Shown: positions 9,571 to 64,000 of the stretch, in pieces
Position numbering within the stretch: position 1 is the first letter of the stretch
Layout of the letters: each line of letters opens with the position of its first letter
IMG/VR virus record: IMGVR_UViG_2854078061_000001
Location: 1 to 64,000 of that record
From: a virus
Lineage: Duplodnaviria > Caudoviricetes
Strand: one strand, 5' to 3'
Length of the DNA: 64,000 bases
Translations under genes and position numbers: made by a program
Notes under the pieces: generated by a model
Seen by the model: only the letters and a program-made list of their open reading frames with translations
Database searches by the model: none
What the model was told of the DNA's origin: nothing

Positions 9571-9571
9571 A

Positions 9572-28114: not shown

Positions 28115-28133
28115 ATAAGAGAGGAGGATTTAA

Positions 28134-37889: not shown

Positions 37890-37905
37890 CGTTTGGAATC
37901 TGGAT

Positions 37906-38852: not shown

Positions 38853-38867
38853 TTCTTATACTCCATT

Positions 38868-39383: not shown

Positions 39384-39394
39384 AGCGATTGCGA

Positions 39395-40303: not shown

Positions 40304-40330
40304 AAGTTTTACCTCTCGTTTGATATGTTT

Positions 40331-40381
40331 TGCGCCACCTTGCAGAATCGAACTGCAATCATTTGAACCACTTCAGTGACA
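40331..40381 (-). ncRNA. tRNA-like minihelix element in 5' leader
   Basis: TGTCACT/GGTGGCG stem plus TTGCAG-TTCGATT-CTGCAA T-arm. Confidence 0.45.
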
Positions 40382-40969: not shown

Positions 40970-41190
40970 GTTGAACTTGTTGCCGCCGCTGTTGTGCGGC
41001 GTTTCTGTTGTTACCCCGTGGGGAACGGCGTTTGTAACAAGTTTTGAAAATTTTCTTTTGGATTTTTTTCGGCGCTTGTTGTTGTGCCGTGTCCCCGTGT
41101 CGCTGTTGTGCGGCGGGGTTTTTGTCGTGCGGCGTTTGTTGTTGTGCCGTGCGGCGTTTATACCCCGTGGGGAAACACGTTTGTAACAAA
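40970..41190. repeat. Cluster of short direct repeats
   Basis: TACCCCGTGGGGAA..GTTTGTAACAA x2, GCTGTTGTGCGGCG x2, TTGTTGTTGTGCCGTG x2. Confidence 0.75.
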
Positions 41191-41386
41191 ATCAGAAAAA
41201 ATTTTTTGAAAAAATTTTCGGCGCTTTATTATAGGTGTATTTTTTGGCGATACCCTGTTGAAAAGTGTGCATTGTAGGGCGGCTGTAAAGCCCTGTAAAG
41301 CGTGTAAAGGCGGCTGGAATGGTAGGATATAGGGCAAAAGAAAAAGCCGCATAAAGCCTCAAAAAGGGCGATATACGGCGGGCAAA

Positions 41387-41412
41387 AGAAAAGCCGCCCA
41401 CGGCGGGCGGCT
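41387..41412 (-). terminator. Intrinsic terminator after 41421 gene
   Basis: AGCCGCCC/GGGCGGCT stem followed by U-tract on - strand. Confidence 0.65.
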
Positions 41413-41420
41413 GGAGATTC

Positions 41421-43013: not shown

Positions 43014-43060
43014 TTTTATAAACCTCATTTCTAAAAGTTTGTAGACGGGCGGCGGCGTGG

Positions 43061-43333
43061 TTATTTCAGTATGATACAGGTGCACGCACAACGAACAGCG
43101 GCGGGGGCGGTAAATTCCGTGTGAATCATCTGTTTAAACGTGTCCAGAATTGTGAACGTTCCCCAAACATTGGGATACAAGAACAGTCCATCAATAGGCA
43201 GATACACGCCCCGCCCCCGCTCAAGTTCAGCGGCAAAAGCGGACAGTTCAGACGGCGTGCACGTCCACAAAGTGCAAAGGTGCATTGACCGGACACGGCG
43301 AAAACGGCGGGGCAATTTGTTGTTGTTTCTCAT
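43061..43333 (-). CDS. Hypothetical protein
   Basis: Same TTTTAGAAATGAGG RBS leader as the 43013 gene. Confidence 0.5.
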   Translation of the reverse strand: MRNNNKLPRRFRRVRSMHLCTLWTCTPSELSAFAAELERGRGVYLPIDGLFLYPNVWGTFTILDTFKQMIHTEFTAPAAVRCACTCIILK

Positions 43334-44087
43334 TGAATAACCCTCATTTCTAAAAAAGTGTGATGCCAGCCCACCACGGCGGCGGGCCTGTCTATATAGT
43401 ACAGCCACAAAAATACATGGTAACGCAATACAACAAAAAAACAGCAAAGAAATTTTAAGGCACAACAGGCAGTTGTAAAAATCCAGGCAGAATTCCAGAT
43501 TTCCAGCACTCGAATACTACCTAATAACGGAAGGTAGCATTCACCGAAAACCCGCATGAATCCTAGACTTTTCGGGCCATACCGGGGGGATGTTAAAAAT
43601 TGGAAAGGGGGTCGAGTTTGGGTCGTGCGTACCAGTTATTCCATCTCCCCAGCCCGTACCAAATCACCCGGTTTTCGCACATCGCCTGCCCCTCACTCGC
43701 CTCCTATACGCAACAATCATCCATCCGCATTCGCTCCAAATTCGCAGTCACCAGCACCCAAAATCACCTGTTGATCGCCCATAAATCACCAATCATCTCC
43801 CCTATCTGCGCACCCGTAAAACGCCCATATTTAACCCCCGATTTCGTCTCCTGTAAATAACGTATTATCGTTATAAAATGCTCCCAGTCAATAATGATTT
43901 TCATCCCAATTTTCACGCAGTTGTGTCTCGATCACCGTGTAATAGCGTCTCAAAAGCGCCGTAGAAACGCTTAAAATGCATTATTTTTGCTCATTTTTGC
44001 TTAATTTTAATAATTTTCTGCCATTTTTACTATATTTTATTTATTATTACAACAGATTATTTTATTCCGGTATTTTGCACAAAACTA

Positions 44088-44221: not shown

Positions 44222-45613
44222 ATGAAGTTTTATGACACCTCCGCGCTTCTTGATTTGGGAGCCGCCGCTTTCGAACCTGCCAGTGCAACAGCCTCTGGTG
44301 CAACAGAGCCGTTTCTGATTGCCGATATGACGCTGCACGAGCTGGAAGAGATCAAGACAAGCGGCAAGAAGAGCGAAGAGATCCGCTATAAGGCCCGTAC
44401 TGTAACCCGCCTGCTGGCCGAGCATCACGACGACAACACCTTTATGGTAGTGGCAGTCCCCATGTCTTCCCTGTTCTATATCCTGGATGGCAAACCGATC
44501 AGCGATAACAACGACGCGACGATCATGGCAACCGCCCGCTGGTATCTGGACGAGATGAAGCGCAATCTGAATGACGCGATTGAAGCCGGACTCCCGGAAG
44601 CACAGCGACAGATCCAGGCCAACATTGATTCTTTCAGGTTCGTCACCAGCGACCTAAGTTGCGCCAATATCGCCAGCGGCATTCTTGATCTGCCGATCGA
44701 GTTCTCCTATCCCGATGCAGCAGCAAGCGCCAATAATAACTACACTGGCTAGACTGAAGTCACTCTTGATGAAGGCGGCGAGGAAGCCATGGCGATGGCA
44801 TATCAAACCCACGATGAAGGCTATACATATCAGAATCTGTTTGACACTCCAGTGAATGGCTATCTGATTGTTCGTGATCCAGACACAGTAGACGATGATA
44901 TGCCGGCAGGCAATGCGGTAGGCTGGCTACGATGGAATGGCAAGAAATATGTACCACTCAAATACAAAAAGATCAGTAATCGCTTCACTGGCGACGTAAA
45001 ACCACTCAATGACCAACAGAAGCTCGCATTTGATATGCTGCAGAACGACGATATTACAGTTAAAATGCTGGCTGGAACATTCGGCAGCGGCAAGACAATG
45101 CTTATGGTGTCCTCTGCCATTGATATGATCGAGAAGCACAAGGTTGAGAAGCTGATCTGGATTCGCAATAACATCGAAGTCAAGAATACCAAGGAGTTGG
45201 GTGCACTACCTGGCACTCTACTAGAGAAGCTCGGCGCTGCTTCTTTTGCTGGACCTCTGGCTGATCACTTGGGCGGCGAAGCTGGTTTGGAATACTGGAT
45301 CAATAATGGGCAGGTAGAAGTAGCTCACCTTGGATTTATTCGTGGCCGCGACTACAAGAACGCAATTATTATGGTTTCAGAGGCTGAGAATCTGACCAAA
45401 GAGCATGTACAGCTGCTACTCGGCCGTGTTGGTGAAGGATCTATGCTGTGGCTTGATGGCGATCTGAAGCAGACTGACGAGGCCGTGTTTGAAAATAACA
45501 GCGGTATGCGTAAGGCAATTCAGTGTCTGGCTGGCAACCCGCACTTTGGATATGTCTACCTGAACAAGACAGAACGCAGCGAGACCGCACAACTGGCTGA
45601 CCTGTTAGACTAA
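44222..45613 (+). CDS. phoH: PIN + PhoH-family ATPase (in-frame TAG at 44750)
   Basis: YDTSALL PIN start, GTFGSGKT, IRGR, SEAEN, GDLKQTD; both halves in one frame. Confidence 0.88.
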
Positions 45614-46240: not shown

Positions 46241-46660
46241 ATGCGCGTTTTATTCGTAAGGTCATCGATCTATGACACAGTATGCGACTGGTATGAACGC
46301 ATGGATACTGTGCAAAAGCATCGCAAGGAGACCGCAATCTGTAAATCACCCGAAGATTTTTGGGATATATTCAATAAAGATAAATTCGGTGCACAATATA
46401 CGACATTCTATTTTGACGATAGGTTGGCGCTGACCGATACTTTTGAATTTTTCAAAGAGATCGCGCGGTTGTATGGTGAAGAGGATGCGAAATATATTTC
46501 AGAAAATAAAATGCGGCGGATCACCATGAACTATTTAATGAACAACAATCAGTTTGACTTGTTCCAGCAGTTCTCCATCACACCCGAATGTCTGGACGAT
46601 GTAATCCATGATGCTCTGGCTGATCAACAGTGTGAATGTGTGTGCAGACCGCTATTGTAA
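46241..46660 (+). CDS. Hypothetical protein with CxCxxLL tag
   Basis: Ends ECVCRPLL. Confidence 0.65.
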   Translation: MRVLFVRSSIYDTVCDWYERMDTVQKHRKETAICKSPEDFWDIFNKDKFGAQYTTFYFDDRLALTDTFEFFKEIARLYGEEDAKYISENKMRRITMNYLMNNNQFDLFQQFSITPECLDDVIHDALADQQCECVCRPLL

Positions 46661-46674
46661 AGGAGAGGCAAAAT

Positions 46675-47139
46675 ATGGAAAGAATACTAACGCCACGAGG
46701 CGGTGGACGTACATATGCGATATGCGAATACGCTGTCAAGAACAATTGCAATATCTTGGTGCCGATGGGCGGGACGGCTATATTATGTGCACAGGACTAT
46801 ATCAAGGAAATCGCAAGGAATCTTGATATTCAATATTAGGGGTATAGGGTTGATCATCAATGCCTTATAGTAGATTTACAAAGCAGAGCTCGCGGAGAAT
46901 ACAGTATTCACGTGATAACAACTACTTGTCCTCCCGATAATTATCGTGGATTGCACTTAGAGGATAAGCCACTTGTTGTTGATGATATTGACCGATGCTT
47001 TAAGTTCATGTGCTTCCCGAATGTGCGAATTGATGCCTGTTCTCTGATGACATATGATCCGAGCGAGGTTGCGTTTACACCGCCAACTGCACCTCAAGAA
47101 GTGCAGCGGGATGAATGCGTGTGTGACAGCTTGGTATAA
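46675..47139 (+). CDS. Degenerate P-loop-like protein with tag (in-frame TAG at 46837)
   Basis: PRGGGRT, LVVDDID; ends ECVCDSLV; open frame across TAG. Confidence 0.65.
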
Positions 47140-48349: not shown

Positions 48350-48625
48350 ATGAAAGAAAACGACTTTTCAAAACAGGATATTTATAATATTGGATTTGCC
48401 GTAGCTGATGCTGTGCGCGATTATGATGTAACTTACGAGGGTATCCTTGACGCGATTCAGGTATATGCAGAATAGCAGGAACTGATCGGCAATGCATCGC
48501 TTTATGATACGTTGTGGATGGAAGATGGTACGCCCATGTCCCCTTCTTTGACACGATATTTATTTCACGAGATGTACTGCCCAGATGATTATGGTTATGA
48601 TGAGGAGGACGGCGACGATGAGTGA
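48350..48625 (+). CDS. Hypothetical acidic protein (in-frame TAG at 48473; missed by ORF track)
   Basis: AAGGAGG RBS; read-through frame ends overlapping the next start. Confidence 0.6.
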
Positions 48626-49186: not shown

Positions 49187-51730
49187 TTGTTTAGTCCACC
49201 ATTATATAGCGTACTAAAATTTAACTTGAATTATATCGTTTCTCATAACTATAATTTTAAACTGACACCAGAAGAGATGGAGCAGTATGAGGTCTTACAG
49301 GGCGACGATATGTTGTTCAGACAAATTCGGCTCATTTCCGACGACTAGAATAAATTCCAGCGCTTTATTATCTTTGTTGATGCAACAGGTGGCCAGAACC
49401 ACCCTGATGCTATTGATCATTTAGTAGAGCATGGATTCAAATTTAATGGCCAGAAATATCTGTTCTGTGAACGTAGTGCAAGTATGGTCCGTCAGAGCAT
49501 GTTAAGTTTTGTTGAGCGACATATCTACCCTGAACTTGACCGCCGCGTAAGCATGGAACTGGATTTTTCTGAGACACCCACCGTCCTGAGCAAGTATTAT
49601 GCTTATCGTGGTTTGATGCTGAGTAGCTGCCACTGCCTAGAGAACTGGTACCCCAAAATGATTGTTGTTCCAGACTATATGACAACGATCAAGAATCAGT
49701 GGATCGAGTATCTGGTAGACAAGACTGTGACGTTTAATGACCGCAAAACAGGCAAAGAGCGTACCTGGACTCAGAAAGATATCGCCACAAAAACAGTTGA
49801 CATTGATATCAACGCCTTTGATGGCGCTGGAATCTGCCACCCAAGTATCATGCGCGAATTTGAAAAGCGTATCGGCACTTCTGAACGGATGAACAGCTTG
49901 ATTTTGCGTGCTCCATATATCAAGGGTTGCTTACACGAGATTGATTACGAGCGTTTTTTTGAAGAGAACGGCGTTACAAAAATCAAGGACATCTGGGGCA
50001 TGGAATATGATGTAACACCTGGCAGCGAACCAATGATTATTATTACTGCTTCAATGTACAAGGGTCTCAAATATTTCAAGAAAACTGGTACCTATTCTGA
50101 CTGGGAGAGATATTGGGAACTTTTCAAGAAGTACGACAACTGCCTTGGTGTAGCTAAATGGAACTTTACGCTTGAACAAGAACCGCTTTCCACCCGTAGC
50201 AACTATCAGGTCATTCAAGATCTACAGCTCGACAATGAGTCTTTTAAGCATCTAGCTGACGACAGCATTACCTGGTATCAGAATATTGTCAAAGGCGACC
50301 CAATTTATACATACTGCTTCCTTGGTTTACTTGCCGAGAACAACGACCCGATGAATCATTACATGGCTGCTGCCCTGCGTAACCCAGTGATGGTGAAAGA
50401 GCCTGCAATCAAAGATTATATTCACTCGCTGCTTGATAAATATCGCAATGAGATGAAGTGCGGTCGGCTTTGGATGAATGCTACTTTTAAGTTCTGGGCT
50501 CCTGACCTTATTGCACTATTGCAGCACATTGGTGGCCTACCTGTGACTGGCTGCCTTGAAGACGGTGAGTTCTACAGCTTTGATCGTCGTGGTGTGATGG
50601 AGGGAGACCGCTTAATTGAGCGCAATCCCCATATCTCTGTTGCAGAACATGTAAAGGCCAAGGCCGTAGACAACGAATACACCCGCAAATACTGCAGCCA
50701 TCTTCAGAATGTTGCTATGGTAAATATCAAATCCATCGTGGCTTCCAGACTCAATGGTTCGGATTTTGATGGCGACCTGGTTCTAATCATCGATAATCCG
50801 CTGATGATGAGTGGTGTTCCTGATAATATCCCCATTACACTCGATGTTGAAGATAAGATCACTGCGTTGGCAGAATGTGATATTGTGAAGAACAAAGTTG
50901 CCTGCACCATTCGCGGATTGAAGAGTTCTATTGGCGAAATTTCAAACTACGCAACTGCATACCATAATAAGGTTCCGACCATGGAAAAGACCAAGAAGCT
51001 CTATCACGATAATATTTCGCTTTTGAGCATCTGCAACGGAAAAGCTATCGATTATGCTAAAACAGGTGTTCTATATCCGATCCCGCGTAATGTAGCAGCT
51101 TATGGTCGTCCTCTACCCTACTTTATGAAGTATGCAGGCCCTTACTACGCACGTTTACATAATCTCAGCAAGGCACATAGCAACATGAACCTGCTTTGCA
51201 TGAGTCTGGAGCGTTGGGAGCGCGGTGTACGGTGGCGTAAAGAGCCCGCAGGCAGCTTTGATTGGCATATCATGTACGATCCAGAGGTCTCCTATGACCA
51301 GGCAGTCTTTGATGAGATCGAAGCCATTTTCTTGGACTTCAACAAATGCCGCAAGGAACAGCTTGAGTTCGAAAAGAAATGTCGCAACTGGCAATTATAT
51401 CATAAGGACATCGAGTCGCGTATTACCAAAGAAGAGGCTAAGACATATGAGACGAACTGGCAGGCGATCTACAATGTCTACCGTAACAAGTGTAAGCTGG
51501 TGTGTCCTGATGTGAGAGAGCTGGCGAATATTCTTGTAGTGCTTTGCTATGAGAAGTATCCCAATAAATTCAAGAAGTTTTTGTGGCACATGGCCGGCGC
51601 TGGTGTGGTCGAAAATATCAAGCCGGTTCCTGTTCAGCTGCCAGTTCACGATCCGAACGGCGAGTACGAATACCTTGGCCAGCGATATAGTCTGGCTGAA
51701 CCGAAAATTTATGAAGCGAGGGTGAAATAA
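49187..51730 (+). CDS. YonO-like single-subunit two-barrel RNA polymerase (in-frame TAG at 49346)
   Basis: GSDFDGD catalytic motif, DGAG, LRAPYIKG, ERNPH; TTG start after GAGGAG. Confidence 0.85.
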
Positions 51731-51731
51731 T

Positions 51732-51980
51732 ATGGGTTGGTTTAAGAAGAAAACAAAGAAACCGCAGAAAATAACCAAGTGTCCTACCTGTGGCGGCTTG
51801 TTGACAAAGCAGACTGGACTGGAGCACGAATTTACTTATAAAAATCAGATGGTTCATGTGCCGGATATCACGGCGATGGTATGCGGTGATTGTGGCGAGA
51901 TGTATTTTGATTATACCGAATTCGAGCGTATTTCAAATTATGTTCATGAAGCAGTTGATGGGAAGGATGAAACAGAATGA
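51732..51980 (+). CDS. YgiT/MqsA-type zinc-ribbon protein
   Basis: CPTCGG...VCGDCGE.YF. Confidence 0.75.
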   Translation: MGWFKKKTKKPQKITKCPTCGGLLTKQTGLEHEFTYKNQMVHVPDITAMVCGDCGEMYFDYTEFERISNYVHEAVDGKDETE

Positions 51981-52261
51981 GTTATCGGTGTTTTAAAATA
52001 ACAATCATTACTTTGATAGCTGTAATATGTTTATGTTTAGGTATTGGAATTTGGGCATCTATTCCGCGCAAAAACAATGTAGGCGATAAATCTATTTATA
52101 ATGGAAGCTCTTTGTACAGTATTTCCAACACGAAACTTATTTACGATGAGAACACAAGAATTATGTATTATTGGCTACATAGTGGATATATGTCTCCATA
52201 CTATAATGCACATGGACAACTTTGCCGCTATATTGATGGCGAAATTATACCAATCGAGTAA
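51977..52261 (+). CDS. Membrane-anchored hypothetical protein
   Basis: N-terminal TM; YDENTRIMYY..MSPYY..G motif. Confidence 0.6.
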   Translation: MSYRCFKITIITLIAVICLCLGIGIWASIPRKNNVGDKSIYNGSSLYSISNTKLIYDENTRIMYYWLHSGYMSPYYNAHGQLCRYIDGEIIPIE

Positions 52262-52270
52262 GGAGGTTAA

Positions 52271-53083
52271 ATGGCATATACAACTTTCTACTGTAATGAG
52301 AATATACTGCTCGATCATTGGCAGGACTATCACGAGTCAAATCTGATGCTGCGAAATCTGCTGAAGCGAACCTCCCTCTCCCCTATTGAATGCGCCACCA
52401 TTTATTATGAGCGGATGAAAAATCCTGAGTCTGTCAGCTATGACCGTAGCCACTTGATCCAGACGTTCAGCAGAGGCCGTAAAAATAACGCGCCCATACT
52501 TGACGTACATCAAGTTGTGCTTTATCAGAAAGATCTGGACTATATCACAGAGGCGCGCCGAAAGTATCATATCAACTACGCACAATTACGTGTTCTGTTT
52601 GGGGTAATATTCTTCTGCCGGCTGTATGGAAGCGATACCTTTGCCTTGGATACCGAGTTCAAGATGAAACGTTTTGGTGGCTGCTTTGAAGAGCAGACAG
52701 AGATCATGTATTGCGCTGGGAAGAACTAGGACGACGGCTATAATACAGTGCGGGGCATGAAAGAGATTTCTGACGACTATCACCTGCTGAACAGAACCGG
52801 CACTGACGACATTGGATGCTTATACCAGTACCAAAATTTTGCCCTTGATAAGAATGACACGATTGCGTACACGTTCAATGTGACGCTTGAAAACAATCGG
52901 CTGAATTTAAGCGCCATAGTGCGAGAGCTATTTGACCCGAAGGAATGTTATTGCATCGTGTGTGGCGAACAGTATCACTCAGAAAAGCCAAATGCCAGCA
53001 GATATTGCAAAGGATGTGCGGCAAAGAAAGAACAGGCACGTCTAGCGAAAAAGAATGCGAATCGAAACAAACGACCGAAATGA
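52271..53083 (+). CDS. Hypothetical protein with C-terminal zinc finger (in-frame TAG at 52727)
   Basis: CIVCG...YCKGC; both halves in one frame. Confidence 0.7.
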
Positions 53084-53159
53084 ACTTTAAGTTCTTAATA
53101 TATGAAAGGGTGTTGTATATTTCCCTTTCGATTATAAATTACAAAGGAGATTTATTATA

Positions 53160-53357
53160 ATGGTTGAAATTACTAAGCGTGAGGCAGAGTATCTGCGTAA
53201 GGTTATTCCCGGTGTCCATATCACTCGTACCGTTCATCACTGGTATGCGGAGGAAATCAAGTCTGTGCTGACTCAGCTGCCTGGCAATCCCGAGGCAGAA
53301 GAGGCGCTACGCGAACTGAACCGCACCCAGCGTACCAACACCAATTTTGAGATCTGA
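53160..53357 (+). CDS. Hypothetical protein
   Basis: AAAGGAG RBS. Confidence 0.6.
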   Translation: MVEITKREAEYLRKVIPGVHITRTVHHWYAEEIKSVLTQLPGNPEAEEALRELNRTQRTNTNFEI

Positions 53358-53365
53358 GGTGGCGC

Positions 53366-54550
53366 ATGGACGAATTTAAGAAAGCGGACGGCGAGACCTT
53401 TGATGAATATATGATGCGGATTGGTGAGGCATGCAGCGAACGTAAGCTGACTTAGAATCAGGCAGCAGAACTGCTGAATGAAGCAACCGGCTCAGACTAT
53501 GGCGAATGCAGATATCGCAAGACCTATAAGTCGTGGAAAGATGGTTATGACTACGCTATTGATCACGCCAACGAAGAAACGATCCAGGATGAACTACAGC
53601 GACTGAAGATTGAAAAGATCAAATTACAAGATGAACGCAATGCAGCAAACAAAGTGTATCGCGATGTTGCCCGTGCCGAATCCATCAAGGAATTGATTCT
53701 GAAGAACGTTGCTCCGTATAACCCTGACAATTTTCTGAATGTTGTGCAATACGAAGGCAGCGGCCACGATGTGATTGTGTGCTTGTCTGATTTACATGCT
53801 GGCGCGGGTATTGATTCGGCGTGGAATAAGTTCAACAAGGATATCCTAAAGGCTCGGCTTGAGAGTTATGCTGCACAGGTGTTCAATATCGTAGCGCGAC
53901 ATACAGCCGAAAAGATTCATGTGCTGCTGTTGGGCGACCTGATCAATGGGCATATCCATGTTAATACCCGCGTGCAGAACAATGAAAACAGCATTGAGCA
54001 GGTTATGACGGCTGCAGAGCTGGTAAGTAATTTTGTTGCTACACTGTACGAGGTATGCCAGCATATTGACGTGTATTCTGTGAGTGGCAATCATTCACGA
54101 GTATTCCCCAGCAAAGAGGATCAGGTAGCAGGTGACGAACTTGAAGCACTGATTCCGTTCTATATGAAGGCACGACTGCAAAATCTGGCTGGCATTGATA
54201 TTAAAACAGAGAAGCTCGATCCGACCTTTGGTGGCTTTAAGGCTAGGAATAGTCTTGTGATGTACGCACATGGAGATAAGGACTCCCCTGCTAACGTCGT
54301 TGAGCACCTGACACTGATGGTGAAGCAGCCAATCGACATGGTGTTCCTTGGTCACCGCCACACAAACGGCATGACAACGGTGCATGGTACGAAGGTTATT
54401 GAGAGCGGCTGCGTTTGTGGCAGCGATTCCTATGCAATTGGACTGCGCAAAAATGATGTGCCGCAGCAGGCAGTGGCTGTAATCGATGACAGCGGCCTAG
54501 AATGTCTGTACGATGTCAAGCTGGAGAAGCCAGCAAAGATAGTAATTTAA
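53366..54550 (+). CDS. Calcineurin-like metallophosphoesterase with N-terminal HTH/coiled coil (in-frame TAG at 53453)
   Basis: SDLH, GDLING, GNHSR, HGD, GHRH motifs. Confidence 0.85.
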
Positions 54551-54561
54551 TAGAGATTTTG

Positions 54562-54591
54562 ATGCCCTGGGCTACGGCCTGGGGCATTTTT
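54562..54591 (+). terminator. Intrinsic terminator
   Basis: ATGCCCTGGGC-TACG-GCCTGGGGCAT-TTTT. Confidence 0.75.
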
Positions 54592-54597
54592 ATATGT

Positions 54598-54674
54598 CGC
54601 AGGTGACAGCGCCGGTGTGCTGACCAGCCTCATAAGCTGTGTTTGGATGCGTTCAACTCGCATACCTGTACCCA
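54598..54674 (+). tRNA. tRNA-Met (CAU), initiator-like C1:A72 mismatch
   Basis: Cloverleaf; CT-CAT-AA loop; CCA. Confidence 0.75.
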
Positions 54675-54710
54675 CAAAAATAAGTTAAAAAGGAGGGTTC
54701 CAAATTAGAG

Positions 54711-54974
54711 ATGGAAGAAAAATATCACAAAGATTTAGGAGGCGATTACTTCTACTGCTATTCCAGACGGACAGCACTGTTTGTTCGCGCTATGGGAATT
54801 TTTTACGAAGAGATTGGAGAGCACCCGGTAACTGGCTCTGTATATACAAAATTCCGCAAGACGAAAAAACTGAATGAAGTTTTAAAACTATAGGATCAGA
54901 TCAAATATCGCTTCGATGATATGATGGACGATGGAACGGTGGTGATTGGCTATGGCCAGAGTTGCCGCAGATAA
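54711..54974 (+). CDS. Hypothetical protein (in-frame TAG at 54891)
   Basis: YFYCYS...HP.TG..Y..F; read-through frame overlaps next gene. Confidence 0.55.
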
Positions 54975-55950
54975 GAAACCGCCTCGTATCAAGGTTCCGC
55001 CCTCTTGGAGTGGTGGCAAATGTATGTGTTGCGGAAAAATCTATGACGTGCGCAAAGGTAATTTCTCAAAAACGAAGAGTCAATGGTTTATTGGTAACGA
55101 CGGATACCTCCCGTGGTGCAATGAGTGCCGTGAGAAGATGTTTGAGTTTTATGTTAAGAAGTATAACGATGAAGATGAAGCGATTGACCGTCTGGCTATG
55201 ATGTTCGATACCTATGTAAATGATAAATTGCTTGACGCATCAGAACATTCTGTGGCATCTGCTTTAAAAATTAACACCTATATGGGACGGCTTAATATAC
55301 GTCAGTATGCAGATAAATCTTATGACGATGTGATCGACCAGAAGAAAAAAGACGCTTTGGCTGCCGGTGATACAAAGGGGACAAAGGTCACTCTGAAGAT
55401 GAGAAAATTCTGGGGTACTGGTCTGGATGAAAAAGATTATTTATTCCTTGATGAGCACTATCAAAATCTTATCACTAGACATGAATGTAAGACGGCCGCA
55501 CAAGAAATTCTGTTCAAACGCATTGCAAAGGCAGAACTTAATTGCGATAAGGCTGATGCCACTGGCGACACAAAGAAAATAAAAGAAGCAAACGACAACC
55601 TGCAGAACCTGATGGGGTCCGCTCAGATCAAACCGAATCAGACGAACGATAACGCATTGGCTGAAACGAATACTTTTGGCACGCTGATTCAGAAATAGGA
55701 AGAGGAAGAGCCGATTCCAGAACCGTCGCCAGAGTGGCAGGACGTTGATGGTATCGGTAAGTATTTTAGAGTGTGGGTGCTGGGTACGTTGCTTAAGATG
55801 TTCAACTTGAAGAATCCATATCAAGACGAATTTGACGAAGAGTTTGAACGATATACTGCTCATAAACCAGAGACAAATGAGGACGATGACACAGATACTA
55901 GCCTCCGCGAAACTATTTTCGGTATTGGCGAAGGCGGTGGTTCCGCATGA
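54952..55950 (+). CDS. Zn-finger protein, terminase small subunit candidate (in-frame TAG at 55696)
   Basis: CMCCG...WCNEC; read-through stop forms ATGA overlap with terminase start. Confidence 0.7.
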
Positions 55951-57704
55951 GTAAAGAGAAATTAACAGATAAGGAAGTAGCGAATACAAAATCAGAAAAA
56001 ATAATGAACGCAGTTGCCATGAGGGCATCATTCTATAGAGCGAATCCTCAGCGGTTTGCAAAAGACTATTTAAACCTGACATTGAAGCCATTCCAAGAGC
56101 TACTATTGTTTTTGATGGTGAGATGCACCGGCTTCTGCTTCATTGCTGCTCGCGGCCTTGGTAAGTCATTTCTAACCGCAGTTTTCTGTGTGATTACATG
56201 TATTCTATGGCCTGGTTCCAAGGTTTGTATCGCCTGTAAAGTAAGAAGCCAATCTATCAGTATTTTGGATGAAAAGATAATGAAGGAGATCTACCCCAAC
56301 AGTCCCCTTCTACGCTCTGAAATCAAAAAGGTCGATATCAACAATCAGAAAGCAGAGATTATATTTAAGAACGGCAGCTATATCAAAGTAGTCACTGCCA
56401 CAGATAGTAGTCGTGGTAGTCGAGCTACACTTCTCATCTGTGATGAATATAGATTGCTTTCTAAAGATGTTATAGATTTGATTTTGAAGAAGTTCCTGAA
56501 TATTGTTCGTCATCCTGGATATTTGGACAAGCCACAATATGCACATCTTGCAGAGCGAAACAAAGAATTCTACCTAAGTTCCGCTTGGTTCCAAAACCAT
56601 TGGAGCTATGAAAAATGTCAGGACTACTTTGTAAATATGATCGACTTTAATAAGAAATATTTCTGCGTATCCTTCCCGTATCAAATGTCAATCAAGAGCG
56701 GCTTGCTGTTGAAAGAAGCTGTAGAGGACGAAATGAGTGAATCAAGTTTTTCTGATTTGACATTTGCAATGGAGAATGAATGTAAGTGGCTTGGTGCTAC
56801 TGAGGGTGGGTTATTCCAATTTGATGACATCAACAAAACGCGCGTCATTGAAAAGGCGTTCTACGCACCGAATCTTTTACTTAATCAAGCTGCTATGGAC
56901 GTGCCGAAAAAGAAAAATGGCGAAGTACGAATTCTCACCGCCGATATTGCATTGATGAGCAGTCGCAAAAACGACAACGATGCAACCAGTATCTTCTTGA
57001 ATTGTATGCTGCCAAATAAATCAGGGCGCTATACTAGCAATTTTGTCTATTCAGAGAACATTGAGGGTATGAGTGCGCAAGATCAGGCACTAAAACTGCG
57101 ACGGTATTTCGATTATTTCAACTGTGATTATATCGGGGTTGACTGTAGAGGTGTTGGATTGCCTCTGGTTGACCTGTTGATGCGCGATATGTATGACCCA
57201 GAAACAGGCGAAACATATCCTGCGATTAGCTGCTGTAACAATCAAGAAATCGCATCTCGCTGTTCTGACAAAAATGCCAAAAAGGTCATCTAGGCAATTA
57301 TGGGCAGCTCTCAGTTTAACAGTGATGTAGCCATTGGATTACGCAGCGGTTTCCAGCAAGGACGTATCCATCTGCTTCAGAGTGAGTACGGATGTGAAGA
57401 CCAGTTGCGCAAAATCTATAAAGGCTATGATAAAATGTCGCCTACTGAACGAGCCGCACTACAGATGCCATATATCAATACCGGGCTTGCTGTAAACGAA
57501 CTTGTAAATCTGGGCTACGAAACCGTAAATAACGTTATCAAAGTCAAGGAGAAATCCGGCTGCCGTAAAGACCGCTACTCTTCCCTGTCTTACAACTATT
57601 ACATTGCGCAGCAAGTTGAACGAAGCATGGAGAAGAAGAATAAAAAGCCAACTTCGCTCACGTTTAACTTTAGAGCGCCTGTATTAAAGAAGGGAGGACT
57701 GTAA
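55947..57704 (+). CDS. terL: Terminase large subunit (in-frame TAG at 57291)
   Basis: AARGLGKS Walker A, LLICDE Walker B, nuclease ADIA..ND.T and KDRYS. Confidence 0.88.
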
Positions 57705-59227
57705 TGGCTGAAGATAAAATGCAGAAAAAGGTCCGCGTAACAAATGCCAAAGATGGCAAGACCTCTTATGTAACATATCAGGATCTTGTCAATGGCGTTT
57801 ATGCGAACCTGTCACATATCGGTATCCGTAATCTGGCATCGAATACCGACACAAATCCGACATATACAAAATATACGAAAGATCAGATCGTCACCTATCT
57901 TGGCAACCCCGCCAACTATGAGAAGCAGCTGCGAAATATGAGTAAATATCTATTCAATATTTCAAACTACTATCGCCGACTGATTCAGTATTTTGCGAAT
58001 ATGTCTACATATTCTTACACGATTTCTCCGTATGGACTTGATCGCTCTAAGACAATTAACGCCAATAAATTTAAGAAGGCGTATTATTCTGCTGTAACAG
58101 CAGTTGAGCTGATGAATATCCCGCACGAAGCCACGAAGATACTGACAATTGCATTCCGCGATGACGTTTACTATGGCTATGCGTGGGAGACAAATGACAG
58201 TTTTGCTTTTCAAAATCTTGATGCAGACTATTGTAAAATAAGCAGCATTGAGGACGGCGTTTATAACTTTGCTTTTGATTTTTCTTATTTTGATTCCAAC
58301 AAAGACAAGCTGCCCAACTATCCGCCAGAGTTTGAGACGATGTATAACCAATATAAGGCTGACTCGCAGAACTACAAGTGGCAGGAGCTGGACAGTTCCA
58401 AGTCCATTTGCATCAAAGTAAACGAGCACGATTATATCCCCATTCCCCCGTTTGTGAGTTTGTTTAGTGCGCTTGCCGATATTGAAGACTACCGTGCCAT
58501 CAGTAAAAACGCAAGTGAGACCAATAACTATAAGGCGCTGGCAATGGAGATCCCAGTGAATGATACTGACGGCTCTTTCCTGATCGACTATGATACAGCA
58601 AAAGAGTTCTATGACATGATGAGTAATGTACTGCCGTCGAATATTGGCGCAATTCTTACTCCCATGAAAATCAGCAGCTAGAACTTTGAAAAGAGCGGCG
58701 TGAACAGTGACTCTAAAGAGGTCGCAAATGCTGAGGCCGCATTCTTTACAAGCGCTGGCGTGAATAAAAATCTGTTCGGCGGTGGCGAAGATCCTTCTGC
58801 TACTACCCTGCAGCTGTGTACTGTGAATGACCAGGAGATCGTGTTTGCAGTGATGCGACAGTTGGAACGCTGGATCAATCGCAAGCTGAAGAGCGTTTCC
58901 AGTTCTTATAGGTTCCGCCTAAACTTTCTACCAGTTACTCATTATAACGTGACTGAGATGCATGAAAGATATCTCAAGGATGCCACCTATGGTATGCCGA
59001 CTCGAACCGCAGCTCTTGCAACTACTGGTTATGCGGGTAGCGATTATGAGAACATGACTTATCTTGAAAATGAAATCTTGAGACTTAGTGCTGGTGAAAC
59101 ACCGCTCAAGAGCTCCAATACTCAGTCCGGTTCCGCCGGGGATGAAGGTGGCCGCCCAACAAATGCAAGTAAGGGCGAGGGCCTGTCTGATGCTGGCAAT
59201 GTAAGCGCCGATAGACAGGAGGCATAA
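57704..59227 (+). CDS. Portal protein (in-frame TAG at 58679)
   Basis: Position after terL, ~507 aa, ends with GGRP motif typical of SPbeta-like portals. Confidence 0.78.
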
Positions 59228-59228: not shown

Positions 59229-59444
59229 ATGAGTCAGGAGATTTATGAAGTTATCGTACACGGAGCACACTCCGCCGGGATGGCAAAGTTCCTGACCGAC
59301 CGTGGCGCTCTGATGCTACGAATAGACCCAACAAACAAGTATGTTTTTGTATACGATTCTGTGTTTGAAAATGCTCTGGCTGAGTTGCAGGTTGCGATTC
59401 GCCAGGGCTTTTATTTTGCTGACGAGGAGGTGAAAACAGAATGA
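59229..59444 (+). CDS. Hypothetical protein
   Basis: ORF in head operon. Confidence 0.55.
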   Translation: MSQEIYEVIVHGAHSAGMAKFLTDRGALMLRIDPTNKYVFVYDSVFENALAELQVAIRQGFYFADEEVKTE

Positions 59445-61084
59445 ATCAACGATATCCGGTTTCTTTTATTAAGAAGGGCGAATACGAATCTTCTGATTTT
59501 CGCTTCATTGATGTCAGCATTGATGTAATGCACACTGGAGCAAACCTCAATAAGACAAGTTTCACAAAAGACGCGATCAACAAAGCAGTACCGACAATCC
59601 GTAATACGCCGATCCTGGGCTACGTTGTAGATGAACTTGACGAGGAAGACAAGGACTTTAAAGGACATGAACATGAACTGCGGATCACCGACAAAGACGT
59701 GAAGTACGTCTATGCTGGTCAAGCTTATGGTGTTATCCCTGAATCTTGTAATCCTCGCTGGATCGTTAAGGATGACGGCACCGGTATTGAACGGGAGTAT
59801 TTGCGTGTTGATGGTTTGATTTGGACAAAATTTAGCGATCCTGTAGATATTTTTACCCGCGATGGTACGAAGAATCACAGTGTTGAGCTGACCGATATGG
59901 CTTGTGGCCCCGCAGATAAGAACGGCAACGTTCCTGTGGGGTCTTTTAAATTTGACGGTTGCTGCATTCTGTCTACGACTGATCCGAGTATCAAGCCCGC
60001 TATGACAGGCAGCTGCGTTACTGCCAATTTTTCTGTTGAAGATATTACTGCTCAGATCCGCGATCGGCTCTATGAGTATCAAGCAATTCAGCAGAACTAT
60101 ACTGCGCAAAATGATAATCCATCCGATGAGGAGAAAGGAGATACAACGCCAATGAATGAAAATGAAATTAAGACTCCTGGCGTCGAGGAGAATCAGGTTC
60201 CTGCTGAGAACACGGTAGCCCCTACCGAACCAGCCGGGAATGAGGCTACTCCTCCCAATGAAAACACTGTGACTGAGCCTGCAGCGGCCCCCGCTGAGGA
60301 GAATGCCGCACCTACTACGGAACCCGAGCCTGCTCCTGCCGAGCCCGCCGGAACTGAGAATACTGCTCCTACCGAGAATGAGCCCGCTGCTGGTGCTGAG
60401 TTTACTCTAAGCGCCAATCAGCTTCGAGACGAAATTTATAATGCGTTGCTAAAAGTTCAGGTTCCTTCTCGATGGGATTCTGACTGTATGATTCCTAAGT
60501 ATTGGCTCACCGATATTCTGGACAGCGAGGTAATTGTGACCGATTCTGGCACGTATCAGCTAATGGGTATTCCCTACTCTATGAATGGCGACAATGTTGT
60601 TCTGGATTACGCGAATATTAAGCGTAAGAAAGTCACTTATGAGGATTGGGACGAGGGCGACGTGATGCCTGGCCTAATCACTATGTTCTCTACTTTGACT
60701 GATAAGCTTGTTGAACTGTCTGATAGCTTTACTAAGGCAGCCAATGAAGTTAGCGAAATCAAACCCAAGCTGGAGGCTTACCAGAAGGCTGAGGAAGATG
60801 CAGTCGTCGCAGCAGAAAAAGCTAAGCGTGATGAGCTGTTTTCTGTTATGGACGAGAAGCTTGGTGCAGATGCTGAGTATATCGCATTGAAGGAGAACAA
60901 GGAGATCAGCTACTCCGATCTGGAGACCAAGTGCTATGCGCTGGTTGGCCGCAAGAGTGCCGAGTTTTCTTATGTTCCCAATAAAAACAACAAAGGAACT
61001 GTCCGCTTTGGCGTGGGTGGCACCCAGAACGGTTCAGATGTCGCGTATGGTGGTCTGATCGAACACTATCTCGGCAATAAGTAA
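59441..61084 (+). CDS. Prohead protease/scaffold protein
   Basis: HTGANLN, HSVEL, CIL...PAM protease-like N-terminus; P/A/E/T-rich linker; coiled-coil C-terminus. Confidence 0.72.
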   Translation: MNQRYPVSFIKKGEYESSDFRFIDVSIDVMHTGANLNKTSFTKDAINKAVPTIRNTPILGYVVDELDEEDKDFKGHEHELRITDKDVKYVYAGQAYGVIPESCNPRWIVKDDGTGIEREYLRVDGLIWTKFSDPVDIFTRDGTKNHSVELTDMACGPADKNGNVPVGSFKFDGCCILSTTDPSIKPAMTGSCVTANFSVEDITAQIRDRLYEYQAIQQNYTAQNDNPSDEEKGDTTPMNENEIKTPGVEENQVPAENTVAPTEPAGNEATPPNENTVTEPAAAPAEENAAPTTEPEPAPAEPAGTENTAPTENEPAAGAEFTLSANQLRDEIYNALLKVQVPSRWDSDCMIPKYWLTDILDSEVIVTDSGTYQLMGIPYSMNGDNVVLDYANIKRKKVTYEDWDEGDVMPGLITMFSTLTDKLVELSDSFTKAANEVSEIKPKLEAYQKAEEDAVVAAEKAKRDELFSVMDEKLGADAEYIALKENKEISYSDLETKCYALVGRKSAEFSYVPNKNNKGTVRFGVGGTQNGSDVAYGGLIEHYLGNK

Positions 61085-61112
61085 TTTACCAAAAATTAGG
61101 AGGTACATAATT

Positions 61113-61625
61113 ATGGCTAATAATAAGCATGCTGTTGTGCGCATTGACAAGCTGGGTGGCACCCTGGATGGTGCTCAGCTGGAGAGTGCTATTTTCTACA
61201 AGGATTCCGATGCCGCTGAGATCGATAACGCTCAGCTGGTTGTTCTGGGCGAAAAGCTGGGTCGCGAGGTCTACAAGGCTACCGCTCCCACCGCAACTTC
61301 CACCGTTGCTGACCTGTATCTGACCGCTGGCGTCGAGCTGTTCTATGATCAGACCGTGGCACATTATCTGCCCGAGTGGGTCAATGAGGCTGGCAAGCCC
61401 GTGCGCGTTTACGCTCTGAATGTTTCTAAGGGTGGCTTCTCTGCTACTGCCGAGGCATTTAACGGCACCCCTGCAAAGGGCAAGTATGTCGGTTTTGCTG
61501 CCGATGACACCAAGATCCAGATTCAGGAGACTGCTGATGACAAGACCTTTGGCTGCATCGACTTTGTTGAGACTGTTGGTTTTGGCGATGGTCGCTATAC
61601 CTACTACATGATCACCCTGAAGTGA
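61113..61625 (+). CDS. Head decoration/stabilising protein (probable)
   Basis: Directly before the capsid gene; IDNAQLV motif; strongly biased codons. Confidence 0.6.
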   Translation: MANNKHAVVRIDKLGGTLDGAQLESAIFYKDSDAAEIDNAQLVVLGEKLGREVYKATAPTATSTVADLYLTAGVELFYDQTVAHYLPEWVNEAGKPVRVYALNVSKGGFSATAEAFNGTPAKGKYVGFAADDTKIQIQETADDKTFGCIDFVETVGFGDGRYTYYMITLK

Positions 61626-61652
61626 TTCCGAAGTTTTAAGAAATCAACATAA

Positions 61653-61684
61653 AGCCGTCCGTTTAAAGCGGGCGGCCATTTTTA
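61653..61684 (+). terminator. Hairpin/terminator between decoration and capsid genes
   Basis: GCCGTCCG...CGGGCGGC then T-tract. Confidence 0.5.
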
Positions 61685-61702
61685 TTATAGGAGGTTTATA
61701 CC

Positions 61703-62698
61703 ATGGCTATTGATTCTAATCTGGTCAAGCTGGCTCTCGATGGCTACAAGGGCCACGTTGCTGGTGATTATTCTGTGAACGACACCCAGGAGGCTCTGCG
61801 CAAGGCTCTGGTTGAGGCAAATGGCGGTTCCACCAAGCTGGACATTAAGGCTCTGCGTGATGGCAGCTGCTCCAAGGTGTTCGCTATTGTTGAGGAGCTG
61901 GTCAATGTTATTTCTGAGGAAGGTCTGAAGGGCGACGAGTTCTTTATGAACATGGTCGAGGACCGCAACCTGGCTCTGGGCGACACTCCCAAGTTCCACA
62001 TCGAGCGCGAGTGCCTGTTTGCTGTTGCCGATATCGCCGAGGGTACTCAGGGCGTGCGCCGTCAGCGTCTGGAAGCTGGTACTGACATCACCGTCAATAC
62101 TCAGCTGCACGCTATTAAGATCTACGAGGAGCTGAACCGTGTTCTGGCTGGCCGTATCGACTTTAACAAGTTTGTTGATATCGTTTCCAAGTCCTTCACC
62201 AAGGATGAGCTGGATTCTGCATATGCTGCATTCGTTGGCATGTTCAGCAAGCTGAATGCTCCCTACATTGAGACCGGCTCTTTTGACGAGGACAAGCTGC
62301 TGGACCTGATCGAGCATGTTGAGGCTTCTACTGGCGAGACCGCTGTGATTGTTGGCACCCGTAAGGCTCTGCGTCAGATCAAGACCGCCGTTGTGTCTGA
62401 TTCCGCCAAGGAAGATATGTACGCAATGGGTCACTTTGGCCGCTTCAATGGTACTGAGCTGATTGCTGTGAAGCAGCGTCACGCTACCGGTACCACCGAT
62501 TTCATCCTGGATGACAAGACCCTGTACGTTTTTGCTGGCGACACCAAGCCCATTAAGCGCGTTACCGAGGGTGATGTCACTATGCTGATGGGCACCCCGA
62601 TGAACAACGCCGATATGAGCCAGGAGTTCCTGATGATGAAGCGCACTGGCATTGCCATTGTGTTTGATCGTGACTTCGGCGCATACAAGATGGCCTAA
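61703..62698 (+). CDS. Major capsid protein
   Basis: 331 aa after scaffold; highly biased codons; YEELNRVLAGRIDF motif. Confidence 0.8.
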   Translation: MAIDSNLVKLALDGYKGHVAGDYSVNDTQEALRKALVEANGGSTKLDIKALRDGSCSKVFAIVEELVNVISEEGLKGDEFFMNMVEDRNLALGDTPKFHIERECLFAVADIAEGTQGVRRQRLEAGTDITVNTQLHAIKIYEELNRVLAGRIDFNKFVDIVSKSFTKDELDSAYAAFVGMFSKLNAPYIETGSFDEDKLLDLIEHVEASTGETAVIVGTRKALRQIKTAVVSDSAKEDMYAMGHFGRFNGTELIAVKQRHATGTTDFILDDKTLYVFAGDTKPIKRVTEGDVTMLMGTPMNNADMSQEFLMMKRTGIAIVFDRDFGAYKMA

Positions 62699-62717
62699 TC
62701 GATAATTTGAGTTGAAT

Positions 62718-62750
62718 GGCGGTGGGGCAACAGCCCTGCCGCTTCTTTTA
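62718..62750 (+). terminator. Intrinsic terminator after capsid gene
   Basis: GCGGTGGGGC-AACA-GCCCTGCCGC-TTCTTTT. Confidence 0.7.
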
Positions 62751-62767
62751 TTAAATAGGAGGAACGA

Positions 62768-63283
62768 ATGGCAAGACGTACAACTAAGACTACCGCCGCG
62801 AAAGCCGCTGCTCCCGTGGTGACTGAGCCTGTAGTCGAAATTACAAATGAGACCATGGTGGAGTGCCGCAATGGCACAGCTGGTAATCTGATTTATAAAT
62901 CCACCTTGAATCCCGGCTATACCGTTGAGTGGGAGGCTTTTGGCGATGTTCAGGAAATGGAGTATCGCGAGCTGGTTTCTATGCGCGGTAATCAGCGCCG
63001 GTTCTTTGAGGAAAATTGGATTTTGATCGATGATCCCGCCATTATCAAGAAGCTTGGCGTTGAGCGCTATTACAAAAATAGTCTGACCACCGACAACTTC
63101 AATGACGTGTTTACAATGCCCGCCGATGAGATTAAGAAGATCGTCCCGACACTGCCGGGCGGCACCAAGGATGCGATTGCATCTGAGGCTAAGAAAAAGA
63201 TCGAAACCGGTGAGCTGGACAGCCGCAGTGCGATTAAGGCGCTGGAGGACTCCCTGTCTGTTGAGTTGGAAGACACAATTTGA
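62768..63283 (+). CDS. Phage head-associated hypothetical protein
   Basis: GGAGG RBS; position after capsid. Confidence 0.6.
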   Translation: MARRTTKTTAAKAAAPVVTEPVVEITNETMVECRNGTAGNLIYKSTLNPGYTVEWEAFGDVQEMEYRELVSMRGNQRRFFEENWILIDDPAIIKKLGVERYYKNSLTTDNFNDVFTMPADEIKKIVPTLPGGTKDAIASEAKKKIETGELDSRSAIKALEDSLSVELEDTI

Positions 63284-63300
63284 TGTAAAGGAGGCGGGTC

Positions 63301-63735
63301 ATGGCAACCACTTTTGAAAGTATCTATGCCCGCTGTCGTGGGCGCATTCGAGATTATGATAAGGAAGGATATACTGACGAGATGTTTGCAGATGCAGAGA
63401 GCGACCTGCTTCAGGCCGCCATTGATGATTTTGCTGACATTTGCGTGCAAGACCTGACTGACTATGATGATGAGTTGCAGCAGTTCAATGTTACTCTGAC
63501 CCGCAAGGAACAGAGTATTCTGGCGTTGAGCATGATTGTACATTGGCTTGAGCCGTATGTTTACAACTCTGACGCTTTGAAGAACGCTATGAGCACTAAG
63601 GACTTTTCTTTCTTCTCCCCTGCTAAGCTACTTGAGCAGATGAAAGACCTTTTGACGCAGTCGCAGCGTAAATTGACTGCTGAGATGAACTTGTATTCCT
63701 TTAAGTCAAACAGTGTTTCTGAATGGACACAGTAA
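63301..63735 (+). CDS. Head-tail adaptor-like protein
   Basis: MATTFESIY start; position; helical acidic protein. Confidence 0.55.
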   Translation: MATTFESIYARCRGRIRDYDKEGYTDEMFADAESDLLQAAIDDFADICVQDLTDYDDELQQFNVTLTRKEQSILALSMIVHWLEPYVYNSDALKNAMSTKDFSFFSPAKLLEQMKDLLTQSQRKLTAEMNLYSFKSNSVSEWTQ

Positions 63736-63746
63736 GGCGGTGGGAT

Positions 63747-64000
63747 ATGACAAGATCTCAATATAGAGCCATGCTGAAACAGGATGGAGAGACGCAGCGC
63801 GACAGGGTGGTCAATAAGGCACTCCATGATACGCGCTTTTTAGCGCCAGTCAATCCTTCTTATAAAGAAGTAACGATAGATGACGTACCCCGCTGGGTAA
63901 ATATTATATCATCTACTGTTACAAACCAGAAAATATTCCGCACAAGACCTGGTGAGGATTTTGAGATCGGCAGCATTATGTACTGGGGTAAGAGCCACTG
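63747..64000 (+). CDS. Structural protein, truncated by window end
   Basis: ATG at 63747, frame open to the end. Confidence 0.55.
   Translation, partial: MTRSQYRAMLKQDGETQRDRVVNKALHDTRFLAPVNPSYKEVTIDDVPRWVNIISSTVTNQKIFRTRPGEDFEIGSIMYWGKSH

Follow-up and report, generated by a model that had tools for sequence, protein, structure and literature searches.

The window analysed here is the first 64 kb (64,000 nucleotides) of a 108,149-bp virus record, IMGVR_UViG_2854078061_000001 (Duplodnaviria; Caudoviricetes), which IMG/VR classes as a provirus that is 73% complete. Its genes run leftward up to about 43.5 kb and rightward from 44.2 kb. Ten rightward genes in the window contain an in-frame TAG codon, including those for a phage RNA polymerase (RNAP), the terminase large subunit and the portal protein. 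Comparison with related phages indicates that TAG in the genes of the rightward arm is a sense codon standing for tryptophan. Sparse decoding of UAG as tryptophan by a phage tRNA-Trp with a CUA anticodon, tRNA(CUA), is probably the mechanism and is the most likely of those we considered. TGG stays the main tryptophan codon, at about 92% of the tryptophan sites in the rightward arm.

TAG codons at tryptophan sites

When the open reading frames (ORFs) were re-read with TAG as a sense codon, split neighbouring ORFs fused, with one odd codon each. PHROG and Pfam matches pass over the TAGs in one stretch. We collected 74 related loci, 73 from IMG/VR and one from a GenBank faecal clone, in which the portal protein shows 82–99% identity, and read the residues of the relatives from tblastn matches to these loci. 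Among the in-frame stops in them, 286 of 287 are TAG. Assembly error was considered as a source of the interruptions and rejected, because the related loci derive from many separate metagenomes.

The related loci cover eight TAG sites of the window, and seven of these face TGG. Tryptophan is also found opposite 12 of the 13 well-aligned TAGs of the genome in G004, a complete relative that is free of TAG, in conserved contexts. Across the relatives there are 26 distinct TAG sites that can be classified, 18 of which are tryptophan sites (p = 3e-16); tryptophan sites make up just 6.4% of the codons that lie one step from TAG. The remaining TAG sites face tyrosine or glutamine, and none is found at lysine, glutamate, leucine or serine, though such neighbouring codons are far commoner. 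Decoding as tryptophan explains this filter, and decoding as glutamine does not.

If the tRNA were charged mainly with glutamine or with mixed residues, TAG would not truly stand for tryptophan. This is the behaviour of the Escherichia coli su7 tRNA-Trp(CUA), an amber tRNA-Trp charged by glutaminyl-tRNA synthetase (GlnRS; PMC2965240), and the published TAG-recoded phages all read TAG as glutamine. Four TAG sites in the relatives do face glutamine, but these are just 4 of the 26, so the pattern is not that of genetic code 15 (TAG=Gln). Tryptophan sites stand to glutamine sites as 18 to 4 although there are two CAG codons for every TGG. The tryptophan is conserved at most of the TAG sites, and glutamine at all of them would harm many essential proteins together. 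Homologues of the portal, terminase and capsid proteins are found in large siphophages of Bacillota, namely Brevibacillus phage Sundance, Bacillus Tsamsa-like, Lactococcus 949-like, and Clostridioides and Enterocloster phages. To our knowledge most Bacillota lack GlnRS, which also counts against charging with glutamine. We regard this explanation as highly unlikely.

TAG-bearing genes of the window

Seven genes with one in-frame TAG each lie between 49187 and 59227, and three more lie upstream of them. The first gene of the rightward arm with a TAG (44222..45613, + strand) encodes a PIN-PhoH-like NTPase. Its TAG is codon 177 (44750-44752), the phrog_2765 match runs unbroken over residues 28-461, and G004 has tryptophan in the context NDYTG[W]TEV. 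A small gene with no assigned function (46636..47139, +) has TAG at codon 68 (46837-46839). The tblastn match to G004 crosses this TAG (residues 4-149); G004 has arginine there, in a poorly conserved stretch, and the 145.9-kb relative G001 has TAG there too. In a second small gene without an assigned function (48350..48625, +), codon 42 (48473-48475) is TAG, and the relatives have tryptophan in 22 loci and TAG in 17.

The gene at 49187..51730 (+) encodes a YonO/RdRP-like single-subunit RNA polymerase. It matches the Pfam family RdRP (PF05183, E = 7e-17, 61.7 bits against a cut-off of 23.8) and phrog_8308 (residues 11-813), and the catalytic DxDGD-type motif is present as DFDGD at residue 526. 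From its sequence the product is assigned to the YonO-type RNA polymerases. As the earlier note on this DNA had pointed out, its TAG stands at codon 54 (49346-49348) in a gene with many ordinary tryptophan codons, of which we count 16 TGG. Relatives have tyrosine or aspartate at codon 54. In 23 TAG-free relatives the RNAP frame is unbroken, with a length of 847-855 amino acids and a ribosome-binding site.

A gene of 270 amino acids with no assigned function (52271..53083, +) has TAG at codon 153 (52727-52729), where the relatives have tryptophan in 27 loci and TAG in 42. The same counts are found for codon 30 (53453-53455) of a metallophosphoesterase-type exonuclease (53366..54550, +; phrog_284, residues 25-387), which has the context ERKLT[W]DQAA in G004. 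It is followed by an 87-amino-acid gene (54711..54974, +) in which TAG codon 61 (54891-54893) is the sole tryptophan site; tryptophan is present in 30 related loci and in G004, and TAG in 41 loci. The next gene (54946..55950, +; 334 amino acids) belongs to phrog_3314, a family of unknown function which matches residues 25-300, and has TAG at codon 251 (55696-55698; tryptophan in 31 related loci, TAG in 40).

The terminase large subunit (TerL; 55947..57704, +) has TAG at codon 449 (57291-57293), and its matches to phrog_2/26582 and to the Pfam family Terminase_6N both cross this codon. Relatives have tryptophan in 40 loci and TAG in 34. The portal protein (57704..59227, +; phrog_2739, residues 29-499, E = 3e-114) has TAG at codon 326 (58679-58681), where 65 related loci have tryptophan and 8 have TAG. 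Among 119 homologues with identities as low as 61%, 116 keep this tryptophan. A gene of 346 amino acids has only its start in the window (63723..64000, +); the one TAG that it has is codon 288, at genome position 64584, where G004 has tryptophan.

A probable suppressor tRNA resembling tRNA-Trp

The complete relatives are 142-151 kb long, two of them with terminal repeats. In those with a tRNA(CUA), its gene adjoins tRNA-Lys(UUU) on the leftward strand, in a further tRNA cluster at 30.4 kb in G001. The same slot is occupied by tRNA-Trp(CCA) in TAG-free relatives, and one genome has both. The CUA tRNAs and the phage tRNA-Trp have in common G73, the G1.U72 pair and the anticodon loop (CU-CUA-AA vs CU-CCA-AA, with the change C35U). 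All six CUA alleles are nearest to phage tRNA-Trp among 95 distinct tRNAs of the phages. Pattern searches and ARAGORN were applied to records rated at least 90% complete, and tRNA(CUA) was found in 18 of 19 TAG-bearing records and in none of 10 TAG-free records.

In bacteria the identity of tRNA-Trp rests mainly on G73 and the anticodon (PMC2965240). No gene for a tryptophanyl-tRNA synthetase (TrpRS) or a release factor was found in the record or in five complete relatives, and the host TrpRS would charge tRNA(CUA) with tryptophan, as the residues facing TAG suggest indirectly. The alignment of the record with G001 spans only 37.5-144.0 kb of the latter. The record is thus truncated and lacks the part of the genome which holds the suppressor in relatives, and we infer that the phage from which it comes has a tRNA(CUA).

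Three explanations would do without this tRNA-Trp. The TAGs could be nonsense mutations in pseudogenes of a decaying prophage, sites of A-to-I mRNA editing (UAG to UIG, read as UGG) or pyrrolysine codons. Decay would suit a 73%-complete provirus without a suppressor, and A-to-I editing would produce precisely this change from TAG to TGG, but the interruptions are always TAG rather than TAA, TGA or frameshifts (286/287 in the relatives), and identical sites recur in dozens of assemblies and track the CUA tRNA. Nor is there a common TadA-type context around the TAGs, as editing would lead one to look for. ARAGORN labels the CUA tRNAs 'Pyl' solely because of their anticodon, but they resemble tRNA-Trp, and the positions in question are those of tryptophan. 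We rejected all three on the TAG-only interruptions, their recurrence with the CUA tRNA and the likeness to tryptophan, and consider them barely credible.

The window itself contains the second tRNA cluster of the phage (25745..28746, -), in which ARAGORN and Rfam identify tRNAs Leu-UAG, Gly-UCC, Leu-UAA, Leu-CAA, an Ile-UAU/Met-like tRNA, Pro-UGG and an odd tRNA-like gene. The tRNA-like gene (26287-26355, -) scores 49.3 bits with Rfam and is missed by ARAGORN; its anticodon stem seemingly has only 3 bp, and a CUA anticodon is absent. As some relatives have tRNA-Gly(CCC) in this position, the gene may be the remnant of a decayed tRNA. A 91-nt tRNA (28024-28114, -) is typed Ile(UAU) by ARAGORN, and its counterpart in G001 is of the Met/Ile2 type (CAU), so that the anticodon differs between close relatives. 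In the first tRNA cluster of the relatives, ARAGORN reports a tRNA-Tyr with anticodon AUA, or a tRNA of undetermined type with a two-base anticodon (L075 2025-2098, -; L076 2497-2569, -; G035 32758-32832). A tRNA-Tyr with A34 is unusual.

Genes without TAG

A purpose-built gene caller based on codon usage was applied to the whole 108-kb record. The leftward arm (1..43540, -) includes genes for nicotinamide phosphoribosyltransferase (NAMPT), an ATPase, a reverse transcriptase, an Ant-like protein and a Xer-like recombinase, as well as the tRNA cluster. The earlier note had found the minus-strand genes which it checked to be free of TAG, and this extends to the whole arm: no genuine in-frame TAG and no TAG terminator is present among its 65 called genes, which have 175 TGG codons. 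TAG occupies 0 of 175 leftward and 20 of 242 rightward tryptophan sites (Fisher p = 2e-5). The frames of both integrase-type genes have no internal stops.

The head module (59229..63735, +) consists of ORFs 59229-59444, 59441-61084, 61113-61625, 61703-62698, 62768-63283 and 63301-63735, and has no odd codon, as the earlier note had also seen. ORF 61703-62698 is assigned as the capsid gene from its homology to a gene of Bacillus phage vB_BanS-Thrax5 whose product is annotated as major capsid protein. An AlphaFold2 model of the putative capsid protein, built with no alignment, was poor, with a predicted local distance difference test score (pLDDT) of 44, and phmmer found no match for it in the PDB. 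Most head and tail genes carry the PHROG label 'unknown function'. The proposal that high-copy capsid proteins avoid TAG is not borne out. The head module has 10 TGG codons overall, the capsid gene has no tryptophan at all, and 0 of 10 against 8 of 45 tryptophan sites is not a significant difference (p = 0.33).

TAG terminators are absent from the genome of the window's record. In G004, which has neither TAG-bearing genes nor a suppressor, TAG terminates 2 of 162 called genes, and the others end with TAA (95) or TGA (65). TAG is already nearly unused as a stop in this phage family, and its rarity as a terminator resembles codon capture.

Number of TAG codons per gene

The earlier note had proposed exactly one TAG per gene. 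This describes the seven genes between 49187 and 59227, but it does not hold throughout. The whole record has 20 TAGs in 18 of 51 rightward genes, or 21 TAGs in 19 genes when the gene at 46636 is added, and two genes in the tail region have two TAGs each. About 33 rightward genes have none, including many late genes. Among 271 TAG-bearing gene instances in the relatives, 256 have one TAG and 15 have two.

The number of TAGs is nevertheless more even than chance would produce. Random placement of 20 TAGs on the 242 rightward tryptophan sites gives 13.6 +/- 1.7 genes against the 18 observed (P = 0.008). P is 0.02-0.04 when the giant genes are dropped and 0.02 for the window's arm alone (10 TAGs in 10 genes). 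The evenness is real but modest, and the two genomes tested are non-independent. The likelihood of TAG rises with tryptophan content and gene length (Spearman 0.46). The earlier note had named TAG counts that scale with tryptophan content as an argument against a lock. No position bias of the TAGs within genes was found. A purine follows TAG in 17 of 20 cases, compared with 146 of 222 for TGG, which is not significant (p = 0.09).

One explanation for the evenness is a selected gate. Single TAGs would be kept in key rightward genes so that leaky transcripts, in the lysogen or at an early stage of infection, yield no RNAP, terminase or portal protein until tRNA(CUA) is made, and one TAG in a gene would be enough. 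The even spread and the strict limitation of TAG to the rightward arm both suit a gate. Many rightward genes do not, since the head module, a protein of 2271 amino acids with 38 tryptophan codons and tail genes of 412 and 590 amino acids are all free of TAG, and genes with two TAGs occur. In 38 relatives of the suppressor clade, 29 of 42 tryptophan sites are never TAG, whereas about 70% of two-fold synonymous sites vary, so that TAG is for the most part selected against. A cost per TAG would alone lead to the expectation of about one per gene.

Evolution of the TAG codons among relatives

We compared the TAG counts in the 21-kb region with a tree of the related loci based on terminase and portal. 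A TAG-free clade comprises 25 loci without the suppressor. A small clade has the suppressor and two or three TAGs, in the 52271 gene (codon 153), the exonuclease (codon 30) and the 54711 gene (codon 61). The counts increase up the tree from 0 to 2-3, then to 6 and then to 7-10, and are 5-10 in the derived clades overall. The portal TAG is confined to the window's closest relatives.

The positions of the TAGs move between relatives, an outcome which the earlier note had put forward as a check of its proposal. RNAP alleles have TAG at codon 20 or 54, replacing tyrosine, or at codon 306 or 325, replacing tryptophan, according to allele type. In L018 and L016 the 52271 gene has tryptophan at codon 153 and TAG at codon 186. 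Both would suit a selected gate: at least four RNAP allele types gained their own TAG, two of them through a change from tyrosine near the N-terminus, and in the 52271 gene the TAG moved. The three TAGs of the small clade also persist on both sides of the deepest split within the suppressor clade, but such retention of a few sites does not exceed that of neutral two-fold sites, of which some 30% likewise do not vary. The basal suppressor clade lacks TAG in RNAP, terminase and portal, the very genes a gate would hold, and, per tryptophan site, RNAP has not gained TAG more often than other genes.

The RNAP allele types are common to TAG-free and TAG-bearing clades (L001-L073), and the alleles are mosaic. 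This indicates recombination of the RNAP gene between lineages with and without the suppressor.

The relatives have a tyrosine integrase of about 450 amino acids at one genome end, which is TAG-free, and several of their records are classed as proviruses. Together with the Xer-like recombinase, which the relatives also carry, this makes lysogeny plausible. The logic of such a gate was proposed by Borges et al. for TAG=Gln and TGA=Trp prophages (10.1101/2021.08.26.457843), and by analogy a code split between lysogenic and lytic modules could apply to this lineage. Weighing these points, we regard a selected gate as possible but on the whole unlikely. The fuller claim is more doubtful, namely that the single TAGs are positively selected one-codon gates for which tRNA-Trp(CUA), charged by the host TrpRS, would act as master switch for RNAP, terminase, portal, tail and lysis.

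Proposed mechanism

We propose that an anticodon change from CCA to CUA in the phage's own tRNA-Trp gave rise to a reader of TAG. The tRNA gene sits among leftward genes in complete relatives, on what would be the early side, and on this view tRNA(CUA) would be expressed early. After the tRNA arose, TGG-to-TAG transitions could have become established across the rightward arm, with its genes for PhoH, RNAP, exonuclease, terminase, portal, tail and lysis, together with a few changes from tyrosine or glutamine at tolerant sites. Release factor 1 would compete at every TAG, and protein yield would be lost with each. Such a cost would keep the density of TAG low, with mostly one and sometimes two per gene, and would also bar TAG from genes that are translated before the tRNA accumulates.

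Because a loss of yield per TAG would penalise second TAGs and produce an even spread, we rank cost-limited accumulation above a designed gate; cost, not design, probably sets the number of TAGs per gene. As their in-frame TAGs would be read by the tRNA, RNAP, terminase and portal would depend on it, and these and about 16 other proteins would not be completed without it. This translational dependence would in effect be a gate. The view that the TAGs are a gate rather than wholesale recoding thus holds in part: they are few, confined to rightward genes and in need of a suppressor. Many late genes are TAG-free, however, and the lock, although a logical consequence, is unproven as a selected function, for which we consider it rather improbable.

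Several observations weigh against cost-limited decoding of UAG as tryptophan by a tRNA of the phage. No CUA tRNA was found with ARAGORN and Rfam in the window's own 108-kb record, which has six tRNAs and one tRNA-like gene. At its left end the record has a serine-integrase module foreign to the phage family, and it could therefore be a deleted, defective prophage. G011 has seven in-frame TAGs and no CUA tRNA. This 123-kb record combines the rightward arm of the family with a left part of 63 kb from an unrelated phage-like element (integrase, DUF5906 and dGTP diphosphohydrolase), and may be an assembly chimera, or else a recombinant which would depend on a suppressor in trans. The E. coli tRNA-Trp with a CUA anticodon is charged with glutamine rather than tryptophan (PMC2965240). 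Tyrosine is replaced by TAG at RNAP codons 20 and 54 and exonuclease codon 356, and glutamine at four sites. Selection for a single TAG in each gene is another explanation with which the even spread (P 0.008-0.04) would agree. Finally, TAG terminators are nearly absent even in G004, which leaves the order of events uncertain. Host DNA was considered for the non-family part of G011 and rejected, since it is another phage-like element.

Comparison with known systems

Alternative codes are found in gut phages with code 15 (TAG=Gln) or code 4 (TGA=Trp), including crAss-like, Lak, Garnet, Topaz, Jade and other phages (10.1101/2021.08.26.457843; PMC9523058). The phage described here resembles these in having one kind of in-frame stop in late, structural and lysis genes, with the standard code in early genes and the integrase. 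Its lineage also resembles them in the suppressor tRNA, which is phage-encoded and usually has no phage synthetase beside it, and for which a role in timing or in the choice between lysis and lysogeny has been proposed. It differs in that TAG would stand for tryptophan, in being very sparse (about 21 codons in 19 genes) and in a suppressor whose recent origin from the phage's own tRNA-Trp can still be seen.

Borges et al. saw only TAG to Gln and TGA to Trp in recoded phages (10.1101/2021.08.26.457843), and in the literature which we searched only these two are reported for phages and TAG=Trp is not. The published pattern has been explained by host synthetases that tolerate suppressor tRNAs. 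A phage lineage with UAG=Trp and without its own TrpRS would break this rule.

A comparable case is Phassvirus phAss-1 with its relatives (PMC10607447), in which TAG=Gln is found in phages of Clostridia from the gut. What they have in common with the lineage described here is a large genome of the siphophage type from the human gut and a probable Bacillota host, TAG in genes that include those for terminase, portal and tape measure, the presence of tRNA-Sup-CTA without a dedicated synthetase, and recoding patterns that vary between close relatives. In phAss-1, unlike the phage here, TAG aligns with glutamine, tRNAscan types the suppressor as Gln, and 41 ORFs are affected, often with several TAGs each (PMC10607447).

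The tRNA recalls E. coli su7/supU, in which the anticodon of tRNA-Trp also changed from CCA to CUA and the G73 discriminator was retained. GlnRS charges the E. coli mutant (PMC2965240), while the comparative evidence here points to tryptophan. A natural tRNA-Trp(CUA) that is accepted by a host TrpRS would be of interest to genetic-code engineers.

NCBI genetic code 32, from the plastid of Balanophoraceae, is the sole NCBI table with TAG=Trp. In that plastid genome the reassignment is complete and TAG is the usual tryptophan codon. In the phage, unlike code 32, TGG is the main codon, and the meaning of TAG would rest on a phage tRNA in a cell that presumably uses the standard code.

With the purpose-built ORF caller, the coding density of the whole record is 84.8% under the standard code and 86.3% when TAG is read as sense; in the rightward arm the two values are 88.6% and 91.1%. 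Screens for recoding look for a gain of at least 5-10%. With a gain of just 1.5% the phage would be missed by screens based on coding density, and recoding so sparse also escapes density-based code predictors, with the result that standard annotation splits such genes. Similar sparse cases have probably been overlooked.

The lineage shows a code change stepwise, from tRNA-Trp(CCA) without TAG, through tRNA(CUA) with two or three TAGs, to 7-10 TAGs in the same 21 kb. Models of reassignment, namely codon capture, neutral ratchet and adaptive gate, can be tested on these natural genomes. Should the gate be true, the lytic arm would not be translated in the lysogen, and relatives or satellites without the tRNA could make no use of it, a one-way barrier to recombination. 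UAG=Trp would then be a natural, minimal and conditional code change made through a single tRNA gene.

Genome organisation and other features

The rightward arm begins with the PIN-PhoH protein and small proteins, followed by the YonO-like RNA polymerase, exonuclease, terminase, portal and head genes; the tail and lysis genes lie beyond the window. Nothing in the first 3 kb of the record resembles the phage family. This part contains a gene for a sigma-70-region-4-like protein at the left end of the record (1-411) and one for a large serine recombinase of 560 amino acids (1266-2948; phrog_95 integrase, E = 4e-105). Positions 1-3000 may have come in as an insertion, or may form another integration module that takes the place of about 37 kb of the phage.

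Two scans of genome contigs with the portal, one with the protein and one with an alignment, did not find a prophage relative. The stretch covered by the window occurs in metagenomes from animal gut, faeces and wastewater, and two RNA-library runs contain relatives, as contigs only.

Among the leftward genes, NAMPT is located at 7949-9421 (-; phrog_448, E = 1e-165), the Xer-like recombinase of 273 amino acids at 16638-17459 (-), without TAG, and a reverse-transcriptase-like protein at 18924-20156 (-). A Pistol self-cleaving ribozyme is present inside the leftward arm (39311-39377, -), where it forms a full-length match to Rfam RF02679 with 66.5 bits (cut-off 34.5).

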